A DNA stretch of 63,018 nt. It comes from a virus. The stretch is from the UHGV virus genome UHGV-0170870; one strand, written 5' to 3'. Below are positions 8,813 to 55,596 of the stretch, piece by piece (position 1 is the first letter of the stretch; each line of letters starts with the position of its first letter). The notes under the pieces were generated by a model. The model had not been told where the DNA came from. It saw only the letters and a program-made list of their open reading frames with translations, and ran no database searches. Position numbers and translations under genes: made by a program.

Positions 8813-8886
8813 CGTCTATCGGCCGTCAGAGAACGGGGCGCTCTGACGGCTGCCATTCCCTCACGCCACCAAAAGGACGGACTACT

Positions 8887-9222
8887 ATGCTCGAAGCCAA
8901 TACCATTCTCGGAAACAACGCCATCATTCTGACCGCGCTGAAGAAGACGCTGTTGGCGGCTGGCGAGCCCCTCTGTGCCGCGCTCGTCGCAGTCGGGGCG
9001 CGGAGCGATACCGAGGTCAAACAGCTCAGTGACGCCAATGTCGAGAGCGACATCGTGAAAGCGATGCTCTTCGACCAGGCATTCATCATCGCCGCCCTGG
9101 CTATGTTCGCCGACAACGAGACCGACAGCACGTTGCTCAGGCTCATCGGGCAGTCGACCAAGGGCATCGCGAACGAGATCGGCAAGTCTGCCAAGACCAC
9201 CGACACCGCCGAAGCCGCGTAA
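8887..9222 (+). CDS. hypothetical protein
   Basis: 111-aa ORF; the overlapping 250-aa minus-strand ORF looks like antisense. Confidence 0.4.
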   Translation: MLEANTILGNNAIILTALKKTLLAAGEPLCAALVAVGARSDTEVKQLSDANVESDIVKAMLFDQAFIIAALAMFADNETDSTLLRLIGQSTKGIANEIGKSAKTTDTAEAA

Positions 9223-11261: not shown

Positions 11262-11312
11262 TATTTAATTGACAGGCTTGTAAGGCGCGTGAGATGACAT
11301 GCACCTTACGAC
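11262..11312 (+). promoter_or_regulatory. promoter-like element, class 1, with flanking inverted half-sites
   Basis: ATTTAATTGACA-N17-AGATGA; half-sites CTTGTAAGG and CCTTACGA flank the -10 region. Confidence 0.5.
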
Positions 11313-20513: not shown

Positions 20514-20696
20514 TTAGGCCTTCTTCGCTTCTACCGCGCCAGTAATGCGCTTGTCAGAGTGATATCGCGACTCGCCATGCGTCATAACGTCAACCGGCTG
20601 TAGCGCGAGCGTTGAAACACGATTGGCAATCTCGCGCAAACCGATTGCGCCGATATGGTCGGCCAATCGGCCATCAATGTAAACAGTGGGATTCAT
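20514..20696 (-). CDS. hypothetical small protein
   Basis: 60-aa ORF directly downstream of hammerhead motif copy 1 and an AAAGG RBS. Confidence 0.35.
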   Translation of the reverse strand: MNPTVYIDGRLADHIGAIGLREIANRVSTLALQPVDVMTHGESRYHSDKRITGAVEAKKA

Positions 20697-20717
20697 GGCG
20701 TTAGTACCTTTCGACTT

Positions 20718-20775
20718 GGACTCATCAGTGGCCGCGTAACGGCCAGACCGCGCTACCTGGCGCGCGGTTTCGTCC
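20718..20775 (-). ncRNA. type II hammerhead ribozyme motif, copy 1
   Basis: RNA 5' GGAC-GAAA-[CCGCGC GCCAGGUA GCGCGG]-UC/UGGCCG UUACG CGGCCA-CUGAUGA-GUCC: all core nucleotides, GUC cleavage triplet, stems I and III as hairpins, stem II closed by the ends. Confidence 0.8.
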
Positions 20776-21047
20776 TAGTAGTAGCAATGGCGGAAAACGT
20801 AATTCCCGTTGTCGTCGCCCGTGAGATAGCCTCTAACGCGACAACCCGCGACGCTACAGACAGCCGGAATGGAAAAATACGTGTCGGGCTCCCCCGTGAC
20901 GTAAACAGTGCGGCGCATGTCGCCCGCCATGTTATCGAGTCGGCAGTTCTCGACCTTCGCCAATGTGGGGCCACCCATCCACACCGCAAACCACGCGGTT
21001 GATCCATCGGGCATATGTTCCGATTTGTCGGCGCGATACTTTTGCAT
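20775..21047 (-). CDS. hypothetical protein
   Basis: 90-aa ORF in small-gene cassette. Confidence 0.4.
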   Translation of the reverse strand: MQKYRADKSEHMPDGSTAWFAVWMGGPTLAKVENCRLDNMAGDMRRTVYVTGEPDTYFSIPAVCSVAGCRVRGYLTGDDNGNYVFRHCYY

Positions 21048-21050
21048 TGG

Positions 21051-21293
21051 TCAATCCCTCTCGATTAGCGCGGTATAGGTTCGGCAATCGCTCGCGAGAA
21101 CGCCGAACTGCGCCGCGTCATGCCAGCGCATGAATCCCGCGTCGTCGCAGCTAACGATTGAACCGCCTAACCACGCGGCGAACTTGTCCGCTTGTGCAAT
21201 TTCGGAATCTTCCATTCCGGAAGCGTCGCCATTGATGAAATACGACGCCCAATAGCTAGGCGCGGTCCCCGTGACAGTGTCGAAGGTTGCCAT
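21051..21293 (-). CDS. hypothetical protein
   Basis: Start at internal ATG 21293 preceded by GAAGGG; ORF track extends to 21326. Confidence 0.4.
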   Translation of the reverse strand: MATFDTVTGTAPSYWASYFINGDASGMEDSEIAQADKFAAWLGGSIVSCDDAGFMRWHDAAQFGVLASDCRTYTALIERD

Positions 21294-21297
21294 TGGC

Positions 21298-21690
21298 TCA
21301 ACCCTTCGCTTTCTTGACGCGCGCATAGTCGCCCGCGCTCTTAAAGTATGTGCCGTGATAGGTTGCGCCGTTGATCGCGCGAACGGTTACCGGGACACGC
21401 TTTCCGCCAAAGTTGTCGCGGTACTCTCGACCAAACGACGCGGAGCCAAGCCTTTCCCCGTTCCACGTTGTGGCGGTATTGGTCTTTGCGTTGATATAGA
21501 GGAAATACCGTTCCGGTATGTCCCGCATAAACTCGAATAGCTCGACCTGGCCGCGCTCGTCATTGGTCGGCGGGTTGATATGGGGCGGCAGTTCGGAGGG
21601 ATGATAGCTATTCGTTTTGCGTGCTTTCATCCACGCGTGCAAAGCCTCATCCCTGGCGCGGATGTCGGCGGCTTGTTCTGGCGTTAGCAT
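21298..21690 (-). CDS. hypothetical protein
   Basis: 130-aa ORF directly downstream of hammerhead motif copy 2. Confidence 0.45.
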   Translation of the reverse strand: MLTPEQAADIRARDEALHAWMKARKTNSYHPSELPPHINPPTNDERGQVELFEFMRDIPERYFLYINAKTNTATTWNGERLGSASFGREYRDNFGGKRVPVTVRAINGATYHGTYFKSAGDYARVKKAKG

Positions 21691-21710
21691 TGGCGTTAGT
21701 ACCTTTCGTT

Positions 21711-21763
21711 GGACTCATCAGTGGCCGCGTAACGGCCAGACCGCGCTAGGCGCGGTTTCGTCC
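21711..21763 (-). ncRNA. type II hammerhead ribozyme motif, copy 2
   Basis: Same core as copy 1; stem III loop is CUA instead of GCCAGGUA, a loop-size change that preserves pairing. Confidence 0.8.
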
Positions 21764-22023
21764 TAGCGTTGCGATTCCAAGAATTTCGCTATGGTGTACG
21801 GTTCAACCGTCACTTTGACGTGGAGGCTGTAATCGTCATCAGCCCAAACCGTTGCGCAGTATCCGTAGATTGAGAGATAGCCCGGAGCAGTCATGTTACT
21901 TTCAACGTGACGCTTGATTACCTCCACGCCTCTATCAACAGTGAAAGCGAAGCTAGGATTGAGACGAGTCAAGAGGTCTGCGACCTCGCGCACATTGCTG
22001 TGATTCCAATTGAGTGCAGGCAT
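21763..22023 (-). CDS. hypothetical protein
   Basis: 86-aa ORF preceded by GAAAGGAAAAC. Confidence 0.4.
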   Translation of the reverse strand: MPALNWNHSNVREVADLLTRLNPSFAFTVDRGVEVIKRHVESNMTAPGYLSIYGYCATVWADDDYSLHVKVTVEPYTIAKFLESQR

Positions 22024-22045
22024 TGGCGTGTTTTCCTTTCTAGGG

Positions 22046-22483
22046 TTAGCGGTGGTAAATCCAACCGCGATAGACTTCGCAGTAAGCTTCGCTGAACGTC
22101 TTAGCGGCCTTGTGGAGCGCGTCGCCCGCGTCGCCTAAACCACGGTCCCAATAGCCAACGCCGTGGCCTTGACGCGAAAACCAAAAGTCATGGCCCGCCT
22201 GCTCTTCGGAGTAGCCATGCGACTCGGCCAAGCGGTCGAGCCATTGCCGGACGAAACAGCCATCCGGCATGATGAAACCGAGAAACGAGTCGCAATCGCT
22301 CGCAATGTCGCGGATTGCTTCGCGCGTGAGTCTCTCGACTCCCAAATCATTCAACCGCGACTCGTTGTCGTCGCCCGTGTCGCCATTGGTGAAAAACACG
22401 GCTTCTACGTATGCCTTCGCGAACGTTGAAAGCTTGTCGTAAGCACGCGGCGCGGGGGTATCGTTCAAGACAAATTCAGGCAT
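22046..22483 (-). CDS. hypothetical protein
   Basis: Start at internal ATG 22483 (MPEFVLND) preceded by GGAAGG; ORF track extends to 22582. Confidence 0.45.
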   Translation of the reverse strand: MPEFVLNDTPAPRAYDKLSTFAKAYVEAVFFTNGDTGDDNESRLNDLGVERLTREAIRDIASDCDSFLGFIMPDGCFVRQWLDRLAESHGYSEEQAGHDFWFSRQGHGVGYWDRGLGDAGDALHKAAKTFSEAYCEVYRGWIYHR

Positions 22484-22487
22484 TGGC

Positions 22488-22898
22488 TCAACCTTCCAAC
22501 TTGGCGCGAAGGTCGGCCATTTCGTTTGCGTGGTTACGTTCTGCGCGCTCGATTGCCGCGCGAGTGATCGCCTTAGCATCAAGCGTGTTCAAGCAATCCC
22601 ACATATCTTTAGTGGCTTGCTCTGATGTGCGGCGCGCGTGTTCTAGATCGCAACGCGAAACCACAGTTCCGAACACGTCAAATATGACGTAGCGAAAGCC
22701 TCGCTTGCGATTCTCAAAGTCGAGTGCATCGCTTGTGACGATTGCGAAAAGCAAACCGTTGTCGACGACTCGCGCGGAGATGACGCGCGACTTGTGGAAT
22801 CGCAAATTATCGTCATCCACGTAATGTGTGCGACCGCAAAGGTTGCGTTGCGCGTTGGTCTTTGGATCATGCGATTCAGTGCGGAAAAGCGTAGTCAT
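22488..22898 (-). CDS. hypothetical protein
   Basis: Start at internal ATG 22898 (MTTLFRTE) directly downstream of hammerhead motif copy 3; ORF track extends to 22991 through the ribozyme. Confidence 0.45.
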   Translation of the reverse strand: MTTLFRTESHDPKTNAQRNLCGRTHYVDDDNLRFHKSRVISARVVDNGLLFAIVTSDALDFENRKRGFRYVIFDVFGTVVSRCDLEHARRTSEQATKDMWDCLNTLDAKAITRAAIERAERNHANEMADLRAKLEG

Positions 22899-22919
22899 GG
22901 CGTTGTTTCCTTTCGACTT

Positions 22920-22972
22920 GGACTCATCAGTGGCCGCGTGACGGCCAGACCGCGCTAGGCGCGGTTTCGTCC
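22920..22972 (-). ncRNA. type II hammerhead ribozyme motif, copy 3
   Basis: Same core; stem I loop UCACG instead of UUACG; followed by RBS and ATG 22898. Confidence 0.8.
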
Positions 22973-23251
22973 TATTTGTCAGGTGACACATACGACACGC
23001 TAGGCGTGCGAAAGCCTTTCACGTTGTGCGAAGTGTAGGAGTCGCGTCGGTTCATTTCACAACCGATAGCGGCAAAGGCGATAACGATACCGATTGAAAC
23101 TGCGACGCAAACCGCGTCGCGCAGTGCTGCAAGGTATGCGCGGACCATTAGCGTGCCCTCGCGATGCAGAACGAAAAGCAAAACCGGCCAATGCGGATAA
23201 ACCGCAAGCCGCCGACTCGTTTTGTGCTGAAATTGATTGCGTTCATGGTGT

Positions 23252-23509
23252 TCACGCTACCGGACGGGATTGGTCGGCGGAAACATTGCACGAAACGACG
23301 CGGTAGAAGTCTCGGCTGTAGCGCGGGCGATCATTTCCGCGCACCGAAGAAAAGGCGAGGCGACGATACATTGCGTCGAAAGCTTCGCTAGGGTCGCGTA
23401 GCCAAAGGCGGGCGATCCAATCGCACCCATTGAGCGTGCAACGAAAGCGAATGTCATAGGCCTTGCGACGCGGTGGCGTTGGCATTGGGCGAAAATTCAA
23501 TTCGGTCAT
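23252..23509 (-). CDS. hypothetical protein
   Basis: Start at internal ATG 23509 preceded by GAAAGGACAAACGCCA; first gene of leftward small-gene cassette. Confidence 0.4.
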   Translation of the reverse strand: MTELNFRPMPTPPRRKAYDIRFRCTLNGCDWIARLWLRDPSEAFDAMYRRLAFSSVRGNDRPRYSRDFYRVVSCNVSADQSRPVA

Positions 23510-47867: not shown

Positions 47868-48092
47868 ATGTTCAAGCAAATAGAAGCTCGGCTCGTCGCC
47901 GACTGGCGATGGGTGGTGAAGCGCTCTTGGTCTGTGCGCTTCCTCGGCCTGTCGTGTCTGTTCGAAGGCGCGAACGCAGTGCTGCCGAGATACGAGACCT
48001 TCTTCAACTACAACCTTTTCTCGGTGCTCACGCTCGTCTGCACGGTGGGCGCACTCGCATCGAGATTCATCGCCCAAGAAAAGGAAGACTGA
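47868..48092 (+). CDS. putative holin
   Basis: 74-aa protein with hydrophobic helices directly upstream of lysozyme. Confidence 0.4.
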   Translation: MFKQIEARLVADWRWVVKRSWSVRFLGLSCLFEGANAVLPRYETFFNYNLFSVLTLVCTVGALASRFIAQEKED

Positions 48093-48093
48093 C

Positions 48094-48618
48094 ATGGCAC
48101 CCACAAAGCGCCAACTCGTCGGGGGCATGTCGGTCGCCGCACTGATCGCCGCCGCTATCCCCATCGCCATCCCGAGCGTGCAGAAGCACGAAGGCGTCTG
48201 GTACACCGCGAAGATCGACCAGATCGGAACGGGCAAGCCGGTCACCTGGTGCTACGGCGAGACTGAAGGCCCCGTGAAAGTGGGGCAGCGTTTCACTCCG
48301 CGAGAGTGTACGCAGATGCTCTCGAAGAAGCTCGTCCGCTATGCCAATAGCGCCGTGTCGTGCATCTACGTGCCGATCTCGGCCAAGATGCTCGCCTCGT
48401 TCATCGACTTCAACTACAACGTCGGCGAATATCGGTTCTGCCATTCGAGCACCGTCGAGCTTCTGAACAAGCGCGAGTACGAGGCTGCCTGCGAAGGCAT
48501 GCGTAAGTACACCCTCTCTGGGGGCCGCTTCCGTCAAGGCCTGCTCAACCGGCGCATCGACGAGATCGCGCTGTGCAGTGACGGCATTCCCGCAGCGAAG
48601 GCCGGGAGGATCGAATGA
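48094..48618 (+). CDS. lysozyme-like endolysin with N-terminal signal-anchor (SAR-type)
   Basis: Hydrophobic N-terminus VAALIAAAIPIAIP followed by E-x8-D catalytic-type spacing (HEGVWYTAKID). Confidence 0.55.
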   Translation: MAPTKRQLVGGMSVAALIAAAIPIAIPSVQKHEGVWYTAKIDQIGTGKPVTWCYGETEGPVKVGQRFTPRECTQMLSKKLVRYANSAVSCIYVPISAKMLASFIDFNYNVGEYRFCHSSTVELLNKREYEAACEGMRKYTLSGGRFRQGLLNRRIDEIALCSDGIPAAKAGRIE

Positions 48619-49121
48619 TCCCGGCCTGGCTGACCTGGCAAGCCATCAGCCTGATCGGCGGTAAGCTCTGGAAGGGCTTCTGCGACTTCATCTCCACGCC
48701 AGTAGGCGCGGCGCTCGTCGCCGGGTTCTGCCTGTTCTGGATCGGCGTCTGGCATGAACACGGCAATCTCGTCGAGGCCGTGAAGGCGAAGGACGCCGCG
48801 TGGCAAAGGAAGTGGGACGACGCCGAGAAGCAAGCTGAGCTGGATCGCCAGAAGCGCGACGCGCTCATCCAAGCTGACATGCAGGCGAAAGCCGACAAGA
48901 GCTTGTCCGAGGTCAGCTCCCGCAAAGATCAACTCGAACAGATGGTCAAGGACTATGAGGACCAACAGCTTCTACAGGCCGCGACGGGCAAGCCTGCCTG
49001 TCCTCCTGAGTACACTGACGACTCTGACGCTCGGTGGCTGCGTGACATCGAGCGACACAAGGACGCTAAGTCCAAAGCAGGCAGTCGACCTGCCCTCCGA
49101 ATGCGAACGATTGATCGTTGA
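48615..49121 (+). CDS. i-spanin (Rz-like)
   Basis: N-terminal TM helix then charged coiled-coil-like periplasmic domain. Confidence 0.45.
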   Translation: MIPAWLTWQAISLIGGKLWKGFCDFISTPVGAALVAGFCLFWIGVWHEHGNLVEAVKAKDAAWQRKWDDAEKQAELDRQKRDALIQADMQAKADKSLSEVSSRKDQLEQMVKDYEDQQLLQAATGKPACPPEYTDDSDARWLRDIERHKDAKSKAGSRPALRMRTIDR

Positions 49122-49278
49122 CGTTCCGATCCCTGGTGTCGTCGACGCACACGGCAAGCCGATCATGAGGCGCGTCGTTCTGAGGCGAACTCAAGCCGCG
49201 ATGGTCGAGCAGCACGAATACAACGCTGCGGCCCGTGAGTGCTTCGCCGATCAGCGTAACGCCTATCAGTCGAAGTGA
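48955..49278 (+). CDS. o-spanin (Rz1-like lipoprotein) in +1 frame overlapping i-spanin
   Basis: Signal peptide with lipobox LTLGGC; embedded in the 3' end of the Rz-like gene in another frame. Confidence 0.45.
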   Translation: MRTNSFYRPRRASLPVLLSTLTTLTLGGCVTSSDTRTLSPKQAVDLPSECERLIVDVPIPGVVDAHGKPIMRRVVLRRTQAAMVEQHEYNAAARECFADQRNAYQSK

Positions 49279-49316
49279 TCCGGCGCAGACGGGATACCTG
49301 CCGGAGACCCCGAGGC

Positions 49317-49350
49317 GGCCCGCAGTCCTGACCGGCTGCGGGCCTCTTTT
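49317..49350 (+). terminator. intrinsic terminator after spanin genes
   Basis: GGCCCGCAG...CTGCGGGCC stem followed by TCTTTT. Confidence 0.5.
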
Positions 49351-49361
49351 CGTGTGGACTG

Positions 49362-49412
49362 CCATTTAATTGACGGAACCGATAGGTCTGTGAGATAGCA
49401 GACCTTACAGTC
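49362..49412 (+). promoter_or_regulatory. promoter-like element, class 1
   Basis: ATTTAATTGACG-N17-AGATAG followed by GCAGACCTTACAG; upstream of phosphoesterase gene. Confidence 0.5.
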
Positions 49413-49436: not shown

Positions 49437-50762
49437 TTGACCGTTAACCTGAAACGGCGGAACGAGATTTTCGCCAAGTACGTCGAGCTGAAGGACTTGC
49501 AGGCAACAGCCGACGCGATGGGTCTGACGCGCGATCACGTCCGCAAGATGCTCAAGGCCGCAGGCGTCGTCACCAAGGCCGTGTCAGCCGCCGAGGCTGT
49601 CCCTGTCGACTCCTTGCTGCCGCTCACGCCCCCGCCTGCGCCCGAGCCCGTCCGGCTCGACCTGGCGGAGAAGCACCGTTTCGAGCAGAACGAGAAGGCC
49701 CTGAAGCGCCAGCTCAAAGACCTGACTGCCCGTCTGGTCGCCGCTGAGGATCACCGCGCCTCGATCCTCGGCTTATCGTTCGAGCCGGTCGAGCCGATAT
49801 GCAAGCCCTGGGTCTTCCAGCAAGGCGAGCGTGGCCGACAGGCTGCCATCCTGCATCTGTCCGACACCCATGACGGCGAGGTCGTGAACCTCGAAGAGAT
49901 GATGGGCGTCAACATGTTCGACCGTGACATCGCGCGGAAGCGCTTCGGCCGGTTGTTCGAGACGGCCTCGATCCTGACGACCTCATCCTGGCCGCGCTCA
50001 GACGGAGCGCCTTTCAGAATCTATCTGTTGCTCGGCGGCGATCTCATCAGCGGCCACGGTCTGCATCCCGAGCTGGCGGAGACCGACTACGGCACCGCGT
50101 ACGAACAGTGCAAAGCGGCCTCGCAGAACATCGCGAGCGGCGCGCTCCGTTGGTCGCTCGAACTGAAAGAGCATTGGGGCCACGATGTCGAGATCATCGT
50201 CATCGGCGTGCCCGGCAATCACGGCCGCTCGACGCCTGGCAAGCCGCGCGCAAAGCTCGCAGCCCTTCAGTCGTATGACACGCTCGTCTTCGACTTCGTC
50301 GAGATGTCGCTGAAGAACTATCCGAACTTCAAGTTCTATTCGACCAGGGCGTTCGACGCGTACTTCGACATCGTCGGGTGGCCGACGCTGCTCACGCACG
50401 GCGACCGCATGAGCGCAGGCGGGGGCACCGGCTTCATCGGCCCCGCAGCGAACATCGTGAAGGGCCACAAGAAGGTGATGCTGACCGAGGCGCAACAGCG
50501 CAGGCCGGTCAAGTTCATCTTCAGCGGACACTTCCACACGCGGCTCGTTACGCCGTGGGGCTTTGCGAACGGATCGCTGATCGGCTTCAGCGAGTTCGCC
50601 AAGAGCATTCGCGCCGACGCGGAGCCCGCGTCTCAGAACTTCGTCGTTCTGCATGAGCGCCTCGGGCTGCTCCGTGAACAGCCCATCATCGTGGGTCGGC
50701 CCGAAGAGGGCTCGATCTACTCACCCACAGGCGGCCTGATCCTTCCGTCGCCTGATCTCTGA
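49437..50762 (+). CDS. calcineurin-like metallophosphoesterase with N-terminal HTH-like/coiled-coil region
   Basis: MPP motifs LHLSDTHDGE, GGDLISG, GNHGRS, SGHFH; TTG start with GAGGA RBS. Confidence 0.65.
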   Translation: MTVNLKRRNEIFAKYVELKDLQATADAMGLTRDHVRKMLKAAGVVTKAVSAAEAVPVDSLLPLTPPPAPEPVRLDLAEKHRFEQNEKALKRQLKDLTARLVAAEDHRASILGLSFEPVEPICKPWVFQQGERGRQAAILHLSDTHDGEVVNLEEMMGVNMFDRDIARKRFGRLFETASILTTSSWPRSDGAPFRIYLLLGGDLISGHGLHPELAETDYGTAYEQCKAASQNIASGALRWSLELKEHWGHDVEIIVIGVPGNHGRSTPGKPRAKLAALQSYDTLVFDFVEMSLKNYPNFKFYSTRAFDAYFDIVGWPTLLTHGDRMSAGGGTGFIGPAANIVKGHKKVMLTEAQQRRPVKFIFSGHFHTRLVTPWGFANGSLIGFSEFAKSIRADAEPASQNFVVLHERLGLLREQPIIVGRPEEGSIYSPTGGLILPSPDL

Positions 50763-50775
50763 CCCAGGAGACGTT

Positions 50776-51291
50776 ATGCGCAAGCTGATCGGCGCGGCGC
50801 TTGCCGCGCTGTGCCTCTTCGCGACTTCCGCCGAAGCGCGACCCCATCACAGGAGCCATCATGCTCGACATCATACCGTTGCTCGCCACGACGTACGTGT
50901 CGCCCGTTCAACCGATTCCATTTTCAGTCTATTTGGTCACGGCGGCAGTTCGCTCGTTGCTGAAGCTCGCAGCCAGGTAGGCAACGGCGCGATCTACGGC
51001 CGGGCCAATCTCTGGTGCGCTCGCTTCGTCAACTACGTGCTGAGGGCCACCGGCCACACCGGCACGAACTCCGACCTGGCGTTCTCGTTCGCACGCTACG
51101 GCCGCCGCGTATCTGGGCCGCAACCCGGCGCAATCGCCGTGATGGCCCGTAGGGGTGGCGGCCACGTTGGGATCGTCTCGGGCGTAGACCAGGCAGGCAA
51201 CCCGATCCTCGTCTCTGGGAACAACCAGGGCAGGGTCCGCGAGACGGTCTACCCGGCAAGACGCATCGCAATGTACGTGGTTCCAGACTGA
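50776..51291 (+). CDS. secreted CHAP/NlpC-P60-like peptidoglycan hydrolase
   Basis: Signal peptide, His-rich stretch, Cys (LWCARFV) and His (GGHVGIVSG) in CHAP-like arrangement. Confidence 0.5.
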   Translation: MRKLIGAALAALCLFATSAEARPHHRSHHARHHTVARHDVRVARSTDSIFSLFGHGGSSLVAEARSQVGNGAIYGRANLWCARFVNYVLRATGHTGTNSDLAFSFARYGRRVSGPQPGAIAVMARRGGGHVGIVSGVDQAGNPILVSGNNQGRVRETVYPARRIAMYVVPD

Positions 51292-51333
51292 CAGCCTCAA
51301 CGGCTCCCAGGCGGTAACCCAAAAGTCTATTAG

Positions 51334-51366
51334 GCCCTCCCGAGCAGTCGGGAGGGCCTTTTTCCG
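51334..51366 (+). terminator. intrinsic terminator after CHAP gene
   Basis: GGCCCTCCCGA-GCAG-TCGGGAGGGCC followed by TTTTTCC. Confidence 0.6.
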
Positions 51367-51532
51367 TATTTGTTCTACTCCCGCCTAGCTCGGAAACCGT
51401 GTTAGGTTTCGGTCGTGTTTGACACCTAACAGGCCTCCGTAGTATTACGGCCCCTGTGAGAACTTGCATTTCGAGAATAAACAAAGCGCCGCATTTAGGC
51501 GAAGAGACAGGAGACGTATTGTGCGTAGAGGT

Positions 51533-51946
51533 ATGACGGCCGCAGACAAAGAGCGGATAGCGCAGTTCGGCAAGAAGGTCGAACGGCTGATGTTGGGCAA
51601 GGGGTGGAGCGGCGCTGACCTGGCGCGCGAGATGGAGCGGCATGCCCCGAAGGGCGTGACCATCGGCAGGCATATTCCCACGGCCTATATCCGTGGTGAG
51701 AACGAGCCGACCCAACGCAACCTGATGCTGATCGCCAAGGCGCTCGGCGTGAAGCCTGAAGAGCTGATCGCCCCTGCGCCTGGTGAGGGCGGATCGGTCC
51801 CGCAGTTCGCGCAGGCTACCAGCACGCTCGACGGGAAGACGCGCATCGTTGTCGACGCCGAGGTCGACGCCGAGACGGGGTTGCAAATCCTTCAGCTCGT
51901 ACGCAAAGCGCAACAACAGTCGTCGACGAAGCGCTCTGCGTCGTGA
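51533..51946 (+). CDS. XRE-family HTH transcriptional regulator
   Basis: HTH GWSGADLAREMERH...QRNLMLIAKALGV; start at ATG 51533; ORF track starts at 51464. Confidence 0.55.
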   Translation: MTAADKERIAQFGKKVERLMLGKGWSGADLAREMERHAPKGVTIGRHIPTAYIRGENEPTQRNLMLIAKALGVKPEELIAPAPGEGGSVPQFAQATSTLDGKTRIVVDAEVDAETGLQILQLVRKAQQQSSTKRSAS

Positions 51947-52079
51947 AGGGTATTCTAATATTGATGGGGGTTGTGCTGCTCACGGCGTTCGTGGGGATGA
52001 ACGTTGTTGCGGCTGCGGGATGGCTTAGCGGGTGGTTGTTTGGATCGTAGCGCCCATTGATTGATGCACGACGGCAACA

Positions 52080-52110
52080 CGCGGCGGCTTTGAGCCGCCG
52101 TTTCTTTTTC
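52080..52110 (+). terminator. intrinsic terminator after XRE regulator gene
   Basis: CGGCGGC-TTTGA-GCCGCCG followed by TTTCTTTTTCC. Confidence 0.6.
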
Positions 52111-52228
52111 CTGTTAACTACCCGTAATTGTTCTGTGTTGCGAAACATCCGACAAGCTGATTTACATTTCGTCACTTTAGGAGGCGCGCAAATGCACCGA
52201 CCGGAGTTCCAAAAACAAGAATCCTAGT

Positions 52229-52627
52229 GTGGAAAACAGAGTGATGGCCGAAGTAGTTCTTTTCCCTCTCAACGCCAATGATCCCAACGTCGATCCTTCG
52301 CTGATCGACCCACCCTCTTTGCTCGCGGAATCTTCCAAAGCACGCGAGATCATCCTTGAATTAGAACATGAACTGAACGACGCGAAGTGCGTAATTGCGG
52401 ATCAGGCCATCGCACTCACCAAGAACAGCTCCCGACGAAGAGGCGCGAAGCTTCTTCTGGCAGCCATCGCCGCGTTCTTGATCGGGTGGGTTATCGACCC
52501 GCCCGCGCCGATCCACAGGCTGATATATGGCGACAAAGCCATAGCGACGGAACTAAGCTATCGGTTCCCGCACGCCTGCACCTTTACCTGCTCCATCCCT
52601 CCCAAGACCGACGCCCGAGACATCTAA
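52229..52627 (+). CDS. hypothetical membrane-anchored protein
   Basis: GTG start 1 nt after an 11-codon upstream ORF with strong RBS; lower-GC region. Confidence 0.35.
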   Translation: MENRVMAEVVLFPLNANDPNVDPSLIDPPSLLAESSKAREIILELEHELNDAKCVIADQAIALTKNSSRRRGAKLLLAAIAAFLIGWVIDPPAPIHRLIYGDKAIATELSYRFPHACTFTCSIPPKTDARDI

Positions 52628-52821
52628 AAGAACGCGCTGTCGTCGTAGCTGTGGGTAACCACGGCTTGATGCTCATCGCCTTCAGCGAATACGACCGTGT
52701 CGCCCGGCATGACCTCCGCGACGGCACGGTGATCCCAGAACCGATGGACGAAGTCCGGTCGGCCGAACGTCTTAACGGCGTTCAGATATCGGTCGTCCTT
52801 GAAGCGCACGAAGTGCAGCAT
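52624..52821 (-). CDS. hypothetical protein
   Basis: 65-aa ORF, last gene of a short leftward operon. Confidence 0.3.
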   Translation of the reverse strand: MLHFVRFKDDRYLNAVKTFGRPDFVHRFWDHRAVAEVMPGDTVVFAEGDEHQAVVTHSYDDSAFF

Positions 52822-53141
52822 CGGCTTCTTCCCTGCAAGATGACCCGCGTGCGTGCCCCAGGCTGATCCAGCCGCCGCAGTGCTGGCATCTGTCCCTAGA
52901 GCTGCCAGGGCAAGGCCAGCGAGGCTCGCTCGAAGGCGACAGGATGGCCTGCGTGATGTTCTCGACCATTTTCATCGTCCACCCCCGTAGCGCTCCAACC
53001 ATTCCTCGTAGGACATCTCGCGTATGTCCATGATCTGCCGCAGCGCCAGCTCGGCGAACGCCTCGTAGATGCGCTGCTTGGCTTCACGCCCGGCGCGCTC
53101 GTAGGCTTCCAGCTCTTCGAGCTTCCGGATCACGGGGTTGG

Positions 53142-53618
53142 TCACTTCCACTCCGGCCCCTCCGGCCTCGGCATATCCTCGATCTCGTATAGGGCCGCCA
53201 GCTCGCGCTCAGTGAAGCGGTGCTTGGCGCTCGGCCGCGCAACGTACGTCACGCTCTCTTCGACCCCTACGTGGTTCAGGTACTTCCACAGGAGCGTCTT
53301 GTAGTCGACGGCACCCAGGGCCGCCTCGATCTTCCCGGCGAGCGACAGGCAGGCGTTGGCCGACAGGTAGGGCATACCGCGCTCTTGCTTCCAACGCTCG
53401 ACGATCTCGACCGCAACGGCGCGCAGCGCGGGGTCTGAGCTACGTTCCGCCTCAGTCTTGCCGTCGCCGGGCCAACGGTATGCGGCGGCGTGCAGGACAC
53501 GCTTGCGCAAGGTCTCATCGGTCTCGCCGGGCCTGCGCGGCATCGTGCCGACGTGCAAGGCCCACTGGTCGAGGTCCAGCCCGGTAGCAATATTCGCATC
53601 TACTTTCGGTCGTTCCAT
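53142..53618 (-). CDS. hypothetical protein
   Basis: 158-aa ORF; first gene of short leftward operon next to att-like sequence. Confidence 0.45.
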   Translation of the reverse strand: MERPKVDANIATGLDLDQWALHVGTMPRRPGETDETLRKRVLHAAAYRWPGDGKTEAERSSDPALRAVAVEIVERWKQERGMPYLSANACLSLAGKIEAALGAVDYKTLLWKYLNHVGVEESVTYVARPSAKHRFTERELAALYEIEDMPRPEGPEWK

Positions 53619-53798
53619 CTGTCATTCCCCTCGACTCAGCTATATGCCGCTCAGCGGCCGGTAGACGCTCGTCACCTATCATACCTTACAGGCCGAGCAA
53701 AGCGTTTTCTTTGATTTCCGATCCTAAGCCATTGGTGGAATTGTGGTGGGGTCCTCGGGGTCTTTGAGACCAACCCCATTGAAAACATTGAATAAGCT

Positions 53799-53848
53799 TC
53801 GGACTCTTAATCAGCGGGTCCCAGGTTCGAGCCCTGGTGCGCCCACCA
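53799..53848 (+). other. tRNA 3'-portion-like sequence (anticodon-loop-like, T-arm, acceptor 3' strand, CCA); candidate phage attachment core
   Basis: Perfect T-arm CCAGG-TTCGAGC-CCTGG followed by TGCGCCC-A-CCA; no matching 5' acceptor strand or D-arm upstream, so not an intact tRNA gene; lies 40 bp from integrase stop. Confidence 0.45.
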
Positions 53849-55024: not shown

Positions 55025-55285
55025 CTAGCTGACAGCCCTCCGCCTGGAAGCCTGCCAGTCTGCGAGGGGATCGCCCGAGACGGTCTTTTCGGTAGGCAGA
55101 CCGGAAGCCCGGTCCAGATACCAATCAATCGCCTTGCGGTCCCACCGCTGCGTGCCGGGGATCGCCCCCGGCACAATACCCCTCTTGACCCAGGTGTCGA
55201 AGGCGTCGGTGCTGCACCCGCAATAGGCTGCCGCGTGTTCCTTCGTCAGGCCGCGAGGGGCGATCTGGTCGGCGGGTAATATCAC
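55025..55285 (-). CDS. excisionase / AlpA-like HTH DNA-binding protein
   Basis: LTKEHAAAYCGCSTDAFDTWVKRGIVPGAIP...W HTH pattern; likely GTG start at 55285; ORF track extends to 55363. Confidence 0.5.
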   Translation of the reverse strand: MILPADQIAPRGLTKEHAAAYCGCSTDAFDTWVKRGIVPGAIPGTQRWDRKAIDWYLDRASGLPTEKTVSGDPLADWQASRRRAVS

Positions 55286-55290
55286 AGACC

Positions 55291-55596
55291 TTACAGTCTG
55301 TCCACAGGGATCGACGCCACGAACGACTTGGCCCGGCCGTAGAAGTATGCCCGTTGCTTGCACCGTTCGATATGCGAGTCCCGAGAGGGCGACGGCGGTT
55401 CGTTCAGCATATTGTCGACCGCCCTGCCTGCGATGTCCTCGGCGCTCGCCAGCGCGTCGTAGGCGTCGTCGAGAGCCTTCCGGCGCACCGCCACCAGGCG
55501 CAGGCGGCGCTTGGCGTGAAGGTCCCAGGCCACGATGCAGAGCAGGGCGGCCACGCTACCGTAGGTCAGGATGAGAGCCTGATCGTAGAAGTTCAT
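55291..55596 (-). CDS. hypothetical membrane protein
   Basis: Start at ATG 55596 with GGAAAGG RBS; TM helix ALILTYGSVAALLCIVAW; ORF track extends to 55866. Confidence 0.4.
   Translation of the reverse strand: MNFYDQALILTYGSVAALLCIVAWDLHAKRRLRLVAVRRKALDDAYDALASAEDIAGRAVDNMLNEPPSPSRDSHIERCKQRAYFYGRAKSFVASIPVDRL

Follow-up and report, generated by a model that had tools for sequence, protein, structure and literature searches.

Gene content and predicted regulation of the int-distal prophage arm of a temperate Bradyrhizobium myophage

In phage lambda, a stretch of non-essential DNA, the b region, extends from the tail-fibre genes to attP, and leftward ea genes lie downstream of int across the attachment (att) site. 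A segment in the same map position, between late genes and attP/int, is described here in the virus genome UHGV-0170870, analysed as a stretch of 63,018 nucleotides (hereafter, the window). This segment (49437-53618) encodes a metallophosphoesterase (MPE), a CHAP hydrolase, an XRE-family regulator with a helix-turn-helix (HTH) domain, a membrane protein of 127 amino acids (aa), p127, and several small leftward genes (Table 1). As in the lambda b region, rightward and leftward genes are mixed, the leftward ones adjoin attP and the whole forms the prophage end opposite int. It differs from the b region in that most of it is conserved within the lineage, one of its units encodes the sole detectable repressor candidate, and its leftward unit has its own dyad/promoter on the phage side of att, independent of read-through from int.

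Two further systems are relevant to the regulation of this segment. The multi-site repressors phiC31 c, with its conserved inverted repeats, and mycobacteriophage L5 gp71, with its stoperators, offer a parallel to a short motif that recurs at about 16 mostly intergenic sites along the window, often overlapping promoters or gene starts. The sites of L5 gp71 are asymmetric, whereas the motif of the window is a 21-bp dyad; in addition, the protein that binds this dyad is a candidate only and five copies of the motif lie inside a longer promoter. Immunity operons of the lambda cI-rexA-rexB type, which we take to be comparable to the unit formed by the XRE gene and a 35-aa hydrophobic open reading frame (ORF), likewise combine a co-transcribed HTH regulator and membrane protein with a promoter and terminator of their own, and a second membrane protein is encoded adjacent to the pair in the window. 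Here, however, the membrane partner is only 35 aa long, no sequence similarity to Rex or Sie proteins is seen, and no divergent cro-like gene is found beside the XRE gene.

Attachment site and transcription units

Integrated copies of the phage match the window up to GGTGCGCCCACCA and diverge exactly after it, entering host DNA; therefore, the segment is the prophage end that adjoins the att site. At the other junction of the integrated copy an intact tRNA-Lys(ctt/CUU) gene lies 40 nt from int, whose product matches PF00589. Both features looked for in the attP of a tRNA-targeting tyrosine integrase were found, namely identity over 47 bp across attP and the two junctions, and an intact tRNA gene next to int. 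The phage integrates into tRNA-Lys(CUU), and 49437-53618 becomes the int-distal end of the prophage. The sequence described in the initial annotation as an att-like site is thus a real attP, and the segment had been correctly placed between it and the lysis cassette.

Strong intrinsic terminators separate several of the genes, as the initial annotation had proposed. The one that follows the lysis cassette has homologs in four relatives, ahead of their MPE genes, hairpins equivalent to the terminator of the MPE-CHAP unit are present in two related loci (L009 and L014), and that of the XRE unit has an equivalent in L014. A pattern scan detected no leftward intrinsic terminator from 53618 down to 47902, and early transcripts of leftward genes could continue, in antisense, across p127 and the XRE gene. 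A minus-strand ORF called by some pipelines at 49066-49365 is antisense to Rz1 and the terminator and was taken as spurious.

The explanation favored here, with moderate confidence for the whole, is that the segment constitutes an int-distal arm of four transcription units subject to two kinds of control, in which two early-lytic units (unit 1, MPE and CHAP; unit 4, the leftward genes) flank two lysogeny-type units (unit 2, XRE and the 35-aa peptide; unit 3, an upstream ORF (uORF) and p127). The description as a defence island fits it less well than that as a regulated arm of lysogeny and early genes; regions of this kind are ordinary in phages, although the lineage is uncharacterised.

Table 1. 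Coordinates of the features of the segment and of related elements in the window
Feature	Position	Strand	Description
Lysis cassette	47868-49278	+	holin-like 47868-48092, SAR-type lysozyme 48094-48618, Rz 48615-49121, Rz1 lipoprotein 48955-49278
Intrinsic terminator of lysis cassette	49317-49344	+	11-pair stem, then T run
Early-class promoter of MPE	49365-49409	+	TTTAATTGACG-N4-CGATAGGTCTGTGAGATAGCA, then ACCTTACA; 14/16 dyad
MPE	49437-50762	+	441 aa: HTH, coiled coil, metallophosphoesterase; same ORF called in public assemblies
CHAP hydrolase	50776-51291	+	171 aa; start 13 nt past MPE stop codon; own AGGAG
Intrinsic terminator of MPE-CHAP unit	51332-51359	+	12-pair stem, 9 G-C pairs, T run
XRE gene promoter-like region	51400-51448	+	-35 TTGACA 51419-51424, N18, -10 TATTAC 51443-51448
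XRE-family HTH protein	51521-51946	+	141 aa; alternative starts 51464, 51533; candidate prophage repressor
35-aa hydrophobic ORF	51943-52050	+	GTG overlaps XRE stop codon (GTGA); absent from gene list of initial annotation
Intrinsic terminator of XRE unit	52081-52101	+	strong
uORF	52192-52227	+	11 codons MHRPEFQKQES; AGGAGG 7 nt before ATG
p127	52244-52627	+	127-aa single-pass membrane protein; GTG 52229 would give 132 aa
65-aa protein	52624-52821	-	widespread, uncharacterised small-protein family
59-aa protein	52972-53151	-	helical; start overlaps end of 158-aa gene; gene call in public assemblies
158-aa protein	53142-53618	-	first gene of leftward unit; near-orphan
Dyad/promoter-like element TGTAAGGTATGATAGGTGACG	53670-53690	-	50 nt upstream of 158-aa gene, phage side of att core; 12/16
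att core	53802-53848	+	47 bp identical to 3' part of tRNA-Lys(CUU); three-way alignment of attP with both prophage junctions
Dyad sites	3540, 4115, 9421, 11279, 14150, 15418, 15855, 17717, 23560, 31738, 35754, 49389, 53670, 55275, 57825, 61727		21-bp dyad

Repeated promoter, 21-bp dyad and candidate repressor

The promoter of the MPE gene, in its short form TTTAATTGACG-N4-TGTAAGGTCTGTGAGAT..., resembles those of the primase and polymerase operons. It shares 27 of 32 positions with the promoters at 4115 (minus strand) and 11264 (plus strand), no such match being found in random sequence, and four related loci (L007, L008, L009, and L014) have kept it in front of MPE. The sequence ACCTTACA occurs seven times on the plus strand and forms one arm of a 21-bp dyad, TGTAAGGT-N5-ACCTTACA. 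Sixteen sites in the window reach at least 12 of the 16 dyad matches (0.35 expected) and nine reach at least 13 (0.08 expected), about 14 of the 16 sites being intergenic. Five of them are enclosed in a near-identical 36-nt promoter, aTTTAATTGACG-N4-TGTAAGGTCTGTGAGATTACA, located at 4115 (minus), 11264 (plus, primase-helicase), 15844 (plus), 61757 (minus, PolA operon), and 49365 (plus, MPE), and TTAATTGAC is present four times, followed each time by the dyad, plus one variant. By their shared promoters, MPE-CHAP and the leftward genes fall into one regulatory class with the replication genes. The element upstream of the leftward unit conserves the N4 spacing to a weak -35 and is present in integrated copies (L002). 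Since it lies on the phage side of att, a split operon, in which the leftward genes are transcribed only by read-through from int across attP, was downgraded.

The two-fold symmetry of the motif, the sites that lack a -35, and those that overlap gene starts argue for binding of the dyad by a dimeric DNA-binding regulator. The XRE protein is the only repressor-type HTH protein detected in the phage and is therefore the best candidate repressor. It belongs to the XRE family based on its HTH_3 match (PF01381, 27.4 bits vs a threshold of 23), PHROG repressor families match it as well, and its nearest phage match is annotated as a cro-like repressor. Matches to TALE proteins were discarded as an artefact of short similarity summed over repeats, no stretch of which was significant alone. 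The protein is 60% identical in L009 and L014, where the -35 CTTGAC is found at the same place. The promoter of the XRE gene (TTGACA-18-TATTAC) differs from the early promoter and is flanked by half-sites, TGTTAGGT-N16-ACCTAACA, that resemble the TGTAAGGT dyad; an 11-nt inverted repeat at this promoter (TGTTAGGTTTC / GACACCTAACA) occupies 51400-51410 and 51421-51431. Hence, the regulator and its promoter-like, palindromic upstream region were recognized correctly in the initial annotation. The start assigned there, TTG 51464, would leave only about 8 nt between it and the predicted start of the transcript; GTG 51521, preceded by GGAG 7 nt upstream, is the more likely start. Hydrophobic ORFs occupy the place of the 35-aa ORF in L009 (73 aa) and L014 (about 49 aa), each with an ATGA overlap.

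According to the favored explanation, an XRE dimer would bind the TGTAAGGT-N5-ACCTTACA dyads at some 16 intergenic sites and its own promoter, in the manner of the phiC31 and L5 repressors. Units 1 and 4 would be turned on together with the replication genes in lytic growth and would be silent in the lysogen, while units 2 and 3 would be the ones that the prophage expresses, with the 35-aa peptide and p127 as possible exclusion-type passengers analogous to rexB or sieB. MPE may act as a DNA-end-processing or repair nuclease, and the CHAP protein would be exported by the Sec route and cut peptidoglycan cross-links as an auxiliary wall hydrolase. A more ambitious version of this proposal is doubtful: XRE as a multi-site repressor of about 16 dyad promoters, including those of the displaced MPE and of the leftward operon that abuts attP, with the translationally coupled 35-aa peptide and the uORF-controlled p127 as new exclusion or defence factors of the prophage and the leftward genes, that of the 65-aa protein included, devoted to host takeover or anti-defence.

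Various observations weigh against the four-unit explanation. The repeat at the XRE promoter is spaced N16, not N5, and is not conserved in L009 or L014; the link between XRE and the dyad is one that we infer, and the early timing is read from promoter similarity alone. No Peptidase_S24 match was found in XRE, as Pfam, PHROG, and NCBIfam match the HTH alone. This led to rejection of a lambda CI/LexA-like cleavable repressor as the identity of XRE and leaves the route of prophage induction unexplained. It is not obvious why a wall hydrolase that is exported should be made early, and nucleotidases and phosphodiesterases also match the fold of MPE, from which substrate specificity is unreadable. 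Furthermore, the phage has its own sigma factor, so that the repeated element could be a sigma-specific promoter rather than an operator.

This last point can be developed into a separate explanation, possible though rather unlikely, in which the repeated TTTAATTGACG...TGTAAGGTCTGTGAGATTACA element is a promoter for the phage sigma factor (or for host RNA polymerase with a phage activator) and XRE is only a local regulator, for example of the 35-aa peptide/p127 as a toxin/immunity-like pair. The presence of a Sigma70_r2/r4_2 gene, the identical -35-like TTGAC and AT-rich upstream stretch of five sites, and the differently spaced, non-conserved repeat of the XRE promoter are all consistent with it. 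However, at least seven dyad sites without a -35 keep a two-fold symmetry that a promoter does not need, sites are found in both orientations relative to transcription, and some overlap start codons, e.g., that of the xis-like gene at 55275-55295. Whichever protein reads them, the 21-bp dyad and the 36-nt promoter represent a testable regulatory map for an unstudied lineage of Bradyrhizobium phages.

Two of the sites deserve mention on their own. The dyad at 55275-55295 overlaps the GTG start of an 86-aa excisionase-like HTH gene (55025-55285) located just upstream of int, which suggests that a single regulator may gate xis and int. The early promoter at 11264-11299 extends to the annotated ATG of the 819-aa Prim-Pol/AAA_25 gene, and thus the true start of this gene is probably further downstream.

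Gene products, conservation and the question of cargo

Relatives were gathered by means of the MPE protein, which has 161 homologues, many of them on contigs of about 60 kb. Loci with a 53-79% identical MPE keep this gene past the lysis cassette and before int. The order MPE-CHAP is conserved in L008, L009, and L014, in which the lysozyme is only 44% identical, and the XRE gene, the hydrophobic ORF, and p127 are kept in L009 and L014, the relatives whose DNA reaches them. Proteins in conserved order are 34-79% identical in L008, L009, and L014. Two other relatives retain less: in the P0069 phage, as judged from annotation, only MPE and its position are kept, none of the downstream genes being annotated as such, and L015, with a 63% identical MPE at the same position past the lysis genes, carries a SprT-like gene (L015 11116-11478) in the slot of CHAP. 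In the window phage only the leftward genes of 158 and 59 aa are variable content; both are absent from L009, where attP directly follows p127. The variable slot of the relatives lies between Rz1 and MPE, where up to 4.5 kb is inserted, including a GDSL-type protein in L008 (6598-7881) and four genes in L009, one of which encodes an 860-aa protein (5291-7873); in the window phage this slot contains only a terminator and is empty of genes.

This conservation bears on the proposal of the initial annotation that the segment holds cargo or defence genes. The att-adjacent location at the prophage end, the promoter-like sites and terminators that the units have of their own, the lower GC of p127 and the 35-aa ORF (0.55-0.56 vs 0.62), the absence of the 158-aa and 59-aa genes from relatives, and the layout of repressor plus membrane protein, which resembles cI-rexAB, speak for morons that are expressed from the prophage and protect or benefit the host. 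Nevertheless, this is an unlikely account of the segment. Most of its genes are conserved in order among divergent relatives, and this includes, in L009 and L014, the XRE and p127 units with their own terminators and promoter-like sites; the MPE and leftward units share the promoter of the replication genes, and the MPE family is a component of replication modules. Searches of PADLOC-DB v2 gave no match for MPE, CHAP, the 127-, 65-, 59-, 158-, and 35-aa proteins or the insertions of the relatives, and the sole match of XRE (E 0.012 over 27 residues) falls on its HTH segment. None of the proteins matched a defence family, and those of 127, 158, and 59 aa are lineage-specific or orphan. Altogether, the position and unit structure described in the initial annotation stand, and a cargo or defence role does not hold for most of the content. 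The interpretation given there is only partly supported: most of the segment is conserved phage equipment (a replication-type nuclease, a wall hydrolase, and a likely repressor), not swappable defence cargo. An att-adjacent position alone does not make genes cargo, and this segment offers phage biology a worked example.

The MPE protein belongs to the calcineurin-like metallophosphoesterase superfamily, as evidenced by its motifs and by its fold match to MPE structures. Its five motifs (DxH, GD, GNH, H, and GHxH, corresponding to D143/H145, G201/D202, G260-N261-H262, H321, and H365/H367) are invariant in 28 homologues; the Pfam Metallophos score is borderline (20.9 bits, marginally below the 21.5 cut-off). 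The extra N-terminal domain noted in the initial annotation appears as a three-helix HTH (residues 5-41) in the AlphaFold2 model (pLDDT 78), followed by a long helix (76-111) and the catalytic domain, and no export signal is present. The profile of PHROG 284 ("exonuclease") matches residues 78-409, that is, the coiled coil and the MPE core (1.6e-31), and in a comparison with predicted viral structures MPE reaches 1e-18 against a large family of phage proteins, 370-500 aa in length, but only ~1e-6 against Mre11-like recombination nucleases of T4 type. A sequence search of the PDB with the MPE profile was empty; the best solved fold, detected with Foldseek, is that of the PolD DP1 exonucleases (E 1e-7, TM-score 0.34-0.39, 13-15% identity).

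PHROG 284 (annotated as "exonuclease" or "DNA polymerase II small subunit") includes BU2-1 gp26 and S-CBS1 gp28. The MPE of the window has all the catalytic motifs, and the window phage has the same set of DUF2800, DUF2815-like, PolA, and Prim-Pol replication genes. In Bacteroides phage BU2-1 the homologue is encoded between a single-stranded DNA-binding protein and PolA, and in Synechococcus phage S-CBS1 between recombination genes and a sigma factor. In contrast to these phage members, to which it is only 26-31% identical, the window MPE has the additional N-terminal HTH, lies 8 kb from PolA past the lysis cassette, and is paired with CHAP. The family is normally encoded beside PolA in DUF2800-DUF2815-PolA modules, and the MPE of the window phage is displaced from the replication module and fused to an HTH. 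Based on the model and its matches, it can be assigned to the "PolD small-subunit-like" MPE family of phages, with DNA nuclease activity as its probable function. A widespread, uncharacterised phage phosphoesterase family is present in the att-adjacent slot. In L015 the SprT-like protease gene that replaces CHAP overlaps the MPE stop codon, a neighborhood that points to a possible DNA-related role of MPE.

Three more specific identities were rejected. For a proofreading exonuclease of PolD DP1 type the TM-score and identity are low, no OB domain was identified in MPE, and no DP2-like gene was present among the called genes. A trans-acting proofreader of PolA would not be needed, since PolA keeps its own exonuclease motifs (DWET, NANFE, and YCLQD; DEDDy). 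Mre11/SbcD is disfavored by the poor match to the T4-type enzymes and by the neighbors of MPE, which are a terminator and the CHAP gene, not a Rad50/SbcC ATPase.

The second gene of unit 1 is predicted to encode an exported CHAP peptidoglycan hydrolase. Both PF05257 (2.6e-10, 41.1 bits vs a cut-off of 26) and TIGR02594 (107.6 bits vs 70.55) match above their cut-offs. The secreted, His-rich nature described for this protein in the initial annotation was confirmed: a signal peptide, MRKLIGAALAALCLFATSAEA, is read from the sequence and is followed by the stretch RPHHRSHHARHH, which is conserved in relatives. The protein is 60-64% identical in L008, L009, and L014, and the catalytic Cys (LWCARF) and His (GGHVG) are kept in L009 and L014. 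As other TIGR02594/CHAP hydrolases (NlpC/P60 superfamily) of phages and type VI secretion effectors, it is small and has a single domain; it differs from them in its cleavable Sec-type signal peptide and conserved His-rich linker, in the location of its gene outside the holin/endolysin/spanin cassette, and in the lack of an evident immunity gene. That MPE and CHAP are late lysis-accessory genes, transcribed as the tail of the late operon by read-through past Rz1, with CHAP as a second endolysin and MPE degrading host nucleic acid or envelope phosphodiesters, is improbable. In its favor, both genes follow the lysis cassette directly and share its orientation, CHAP is a common endolysin domain, and all relatives keep this position. 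Against it, MPE is divided from Rz1 by a strong terminator and by a dedicated promoter that is conserved, other genes occupy up to 4.5 kb between the two in relatives, L015 has the SprT-like protease for CHAP, and MPE has an HTH and no export signal.

The lysis cassette itself looks like the pinholin/signal-arrest-release (SAR) type. It comprises a DUF7940 protein of 74 aa, a lysozyme whose N-terminal hydrophobic segment is rich in Gly and Ala, Rz, and Rz1, which overlaps Rz and has the lipobox LGGC.

In unit 3, the most likely start of p127 is ATG 52244, because the relatives begin with MAE/MAV there. The uORF reported in the initial annotation exists, and it ends 16 nt before this ATG, not 1 nt before a GTG start. 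Short ORFs that end 16-21 nt before the main ATG also occur in L009 and L014, with a sequence, frame, and Shine-Dalgarno unlike those of the window uORF, and in L009 the ATG of the analogue abuts the predicted -10. The relatives of p127 in these two loci are 34-40% identical, and no homologues were detected beyond the lineage. The gene has a GC of 0.56 and converges on the 65-aa gene, with which it overlaps at the stop codons (52624-52627).

The leftward operon of small ORFs was found where the initial annotation had placed it. Its three ORFs (158, 59, and 65 aa) have a GC content at third codon positions typical of coding sequence (0.77-0.82). The smallest of them, an ORF at about 52972 described as having 57 aa, is real (0.82 at third positions) and encodes 59 aa from GTG 53151; it matched no family in Pfam, PHROG, or NCBIfam and no protein beyond the lineage in the homology search. 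The 65-aa protein is 80% identical in L014 and belongs to a family of at least 290 clusters with no structural match, one homologue of which is encoded among early small genes beside the recombinase of Citromicrobium phage RXM; a PDB sequence search with its profile was empty. Among 5.8 billion proteins, the 158-aa protein matched only its own cluster. Its C-terminal part matches phrog_21984 (5.8e-7) and it shares a 41%-identical stretch of 49 aa with a protein of L014; homology searches found nothing beyond the lineage, and the PDB search with its profile was likewise empty.

The 150-nt gap between the 65-aa and 59-aa genes (52822-52971) contains no structured RNA (fold z-score 0.42) and no convincing ORF, the codon-position GC of a 76-aa ORF in it being flat. 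In L014 a Cys-rich ORF (CGGCPF...ACH...CCGH; 8578-8952, minus strand) lies between the homologue of the 65-aa gene and the next leftward gene, and the corresponding gap of the window may be a deletion scar.

Phage, host and occurrence in public assemblies

The window is the circular/excised form of a temperate myophage of Bradyrhizobium. It encodes a Mu-type baseplate, a GpA-type terminase, and a lambda-type portal, together with a replication set composed of a DUF2800 nuclease, an Enc34-type single-stranded DNA-binding protein, a family A polymerase, a Prim-Pol/AAA_25 primase-helicase, and a SNF2 helicase. Rfam and tRNA scans of the window gave no matches. A megablast search against GenBank phages found no match at the DNA level, and the lineage is therefore unrepresented there; the literature contained nothing specific on this phage or on its status as a contaminant.

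The exact MPE and integrase proteins are recorded in 563 and 616 public assembly blocks, respectively, many of which are free contigs of about 63 kb and a few of which lie inside chromosomes of about 7.5 Mb. Judging by the names of the sources, Bradyrhizobium viridifuturi and Bradyrhizobium sp. 17-4 would be the hosts. The phage is also found, about 100% identical, as ~63-kb contigs or fragments (L012, L013, and L025-L027) in assemblies with unrelated labels, including Streptomyces iakyrus, Phycicoccus jejuensis, E. coli, Acinetobacter baumannii, Klebsiella, Lacticaseibacillus, Aspergillus fumigatus, Hammondia hammondi (flagged UNVERIFIED_CONTAM), and a seawater metagenome. These widespread copies look like contamination, from the laboratory or from reagents, that goes back to a lysogen of Bradyrhizobium. 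As a phage that is identical base for base in hundreds of unrelated assemblies, it causes proteins to be mislabelled in databases as those of E. coli, Acinetobacter, Aspergillus, or Streptomyces.

Outside the segment, nine small leftward genes at 20514-23509 (minus strand), between the early and late regions, form the part of the genome with the lowest GC (0.55-0.57). PHROG matched only one of them (function unassigned), and PADLOC was blank for the three genes tested. Judging by composition, this cluster would be a better candidate for acquired accessory DNA than 49437-53618.

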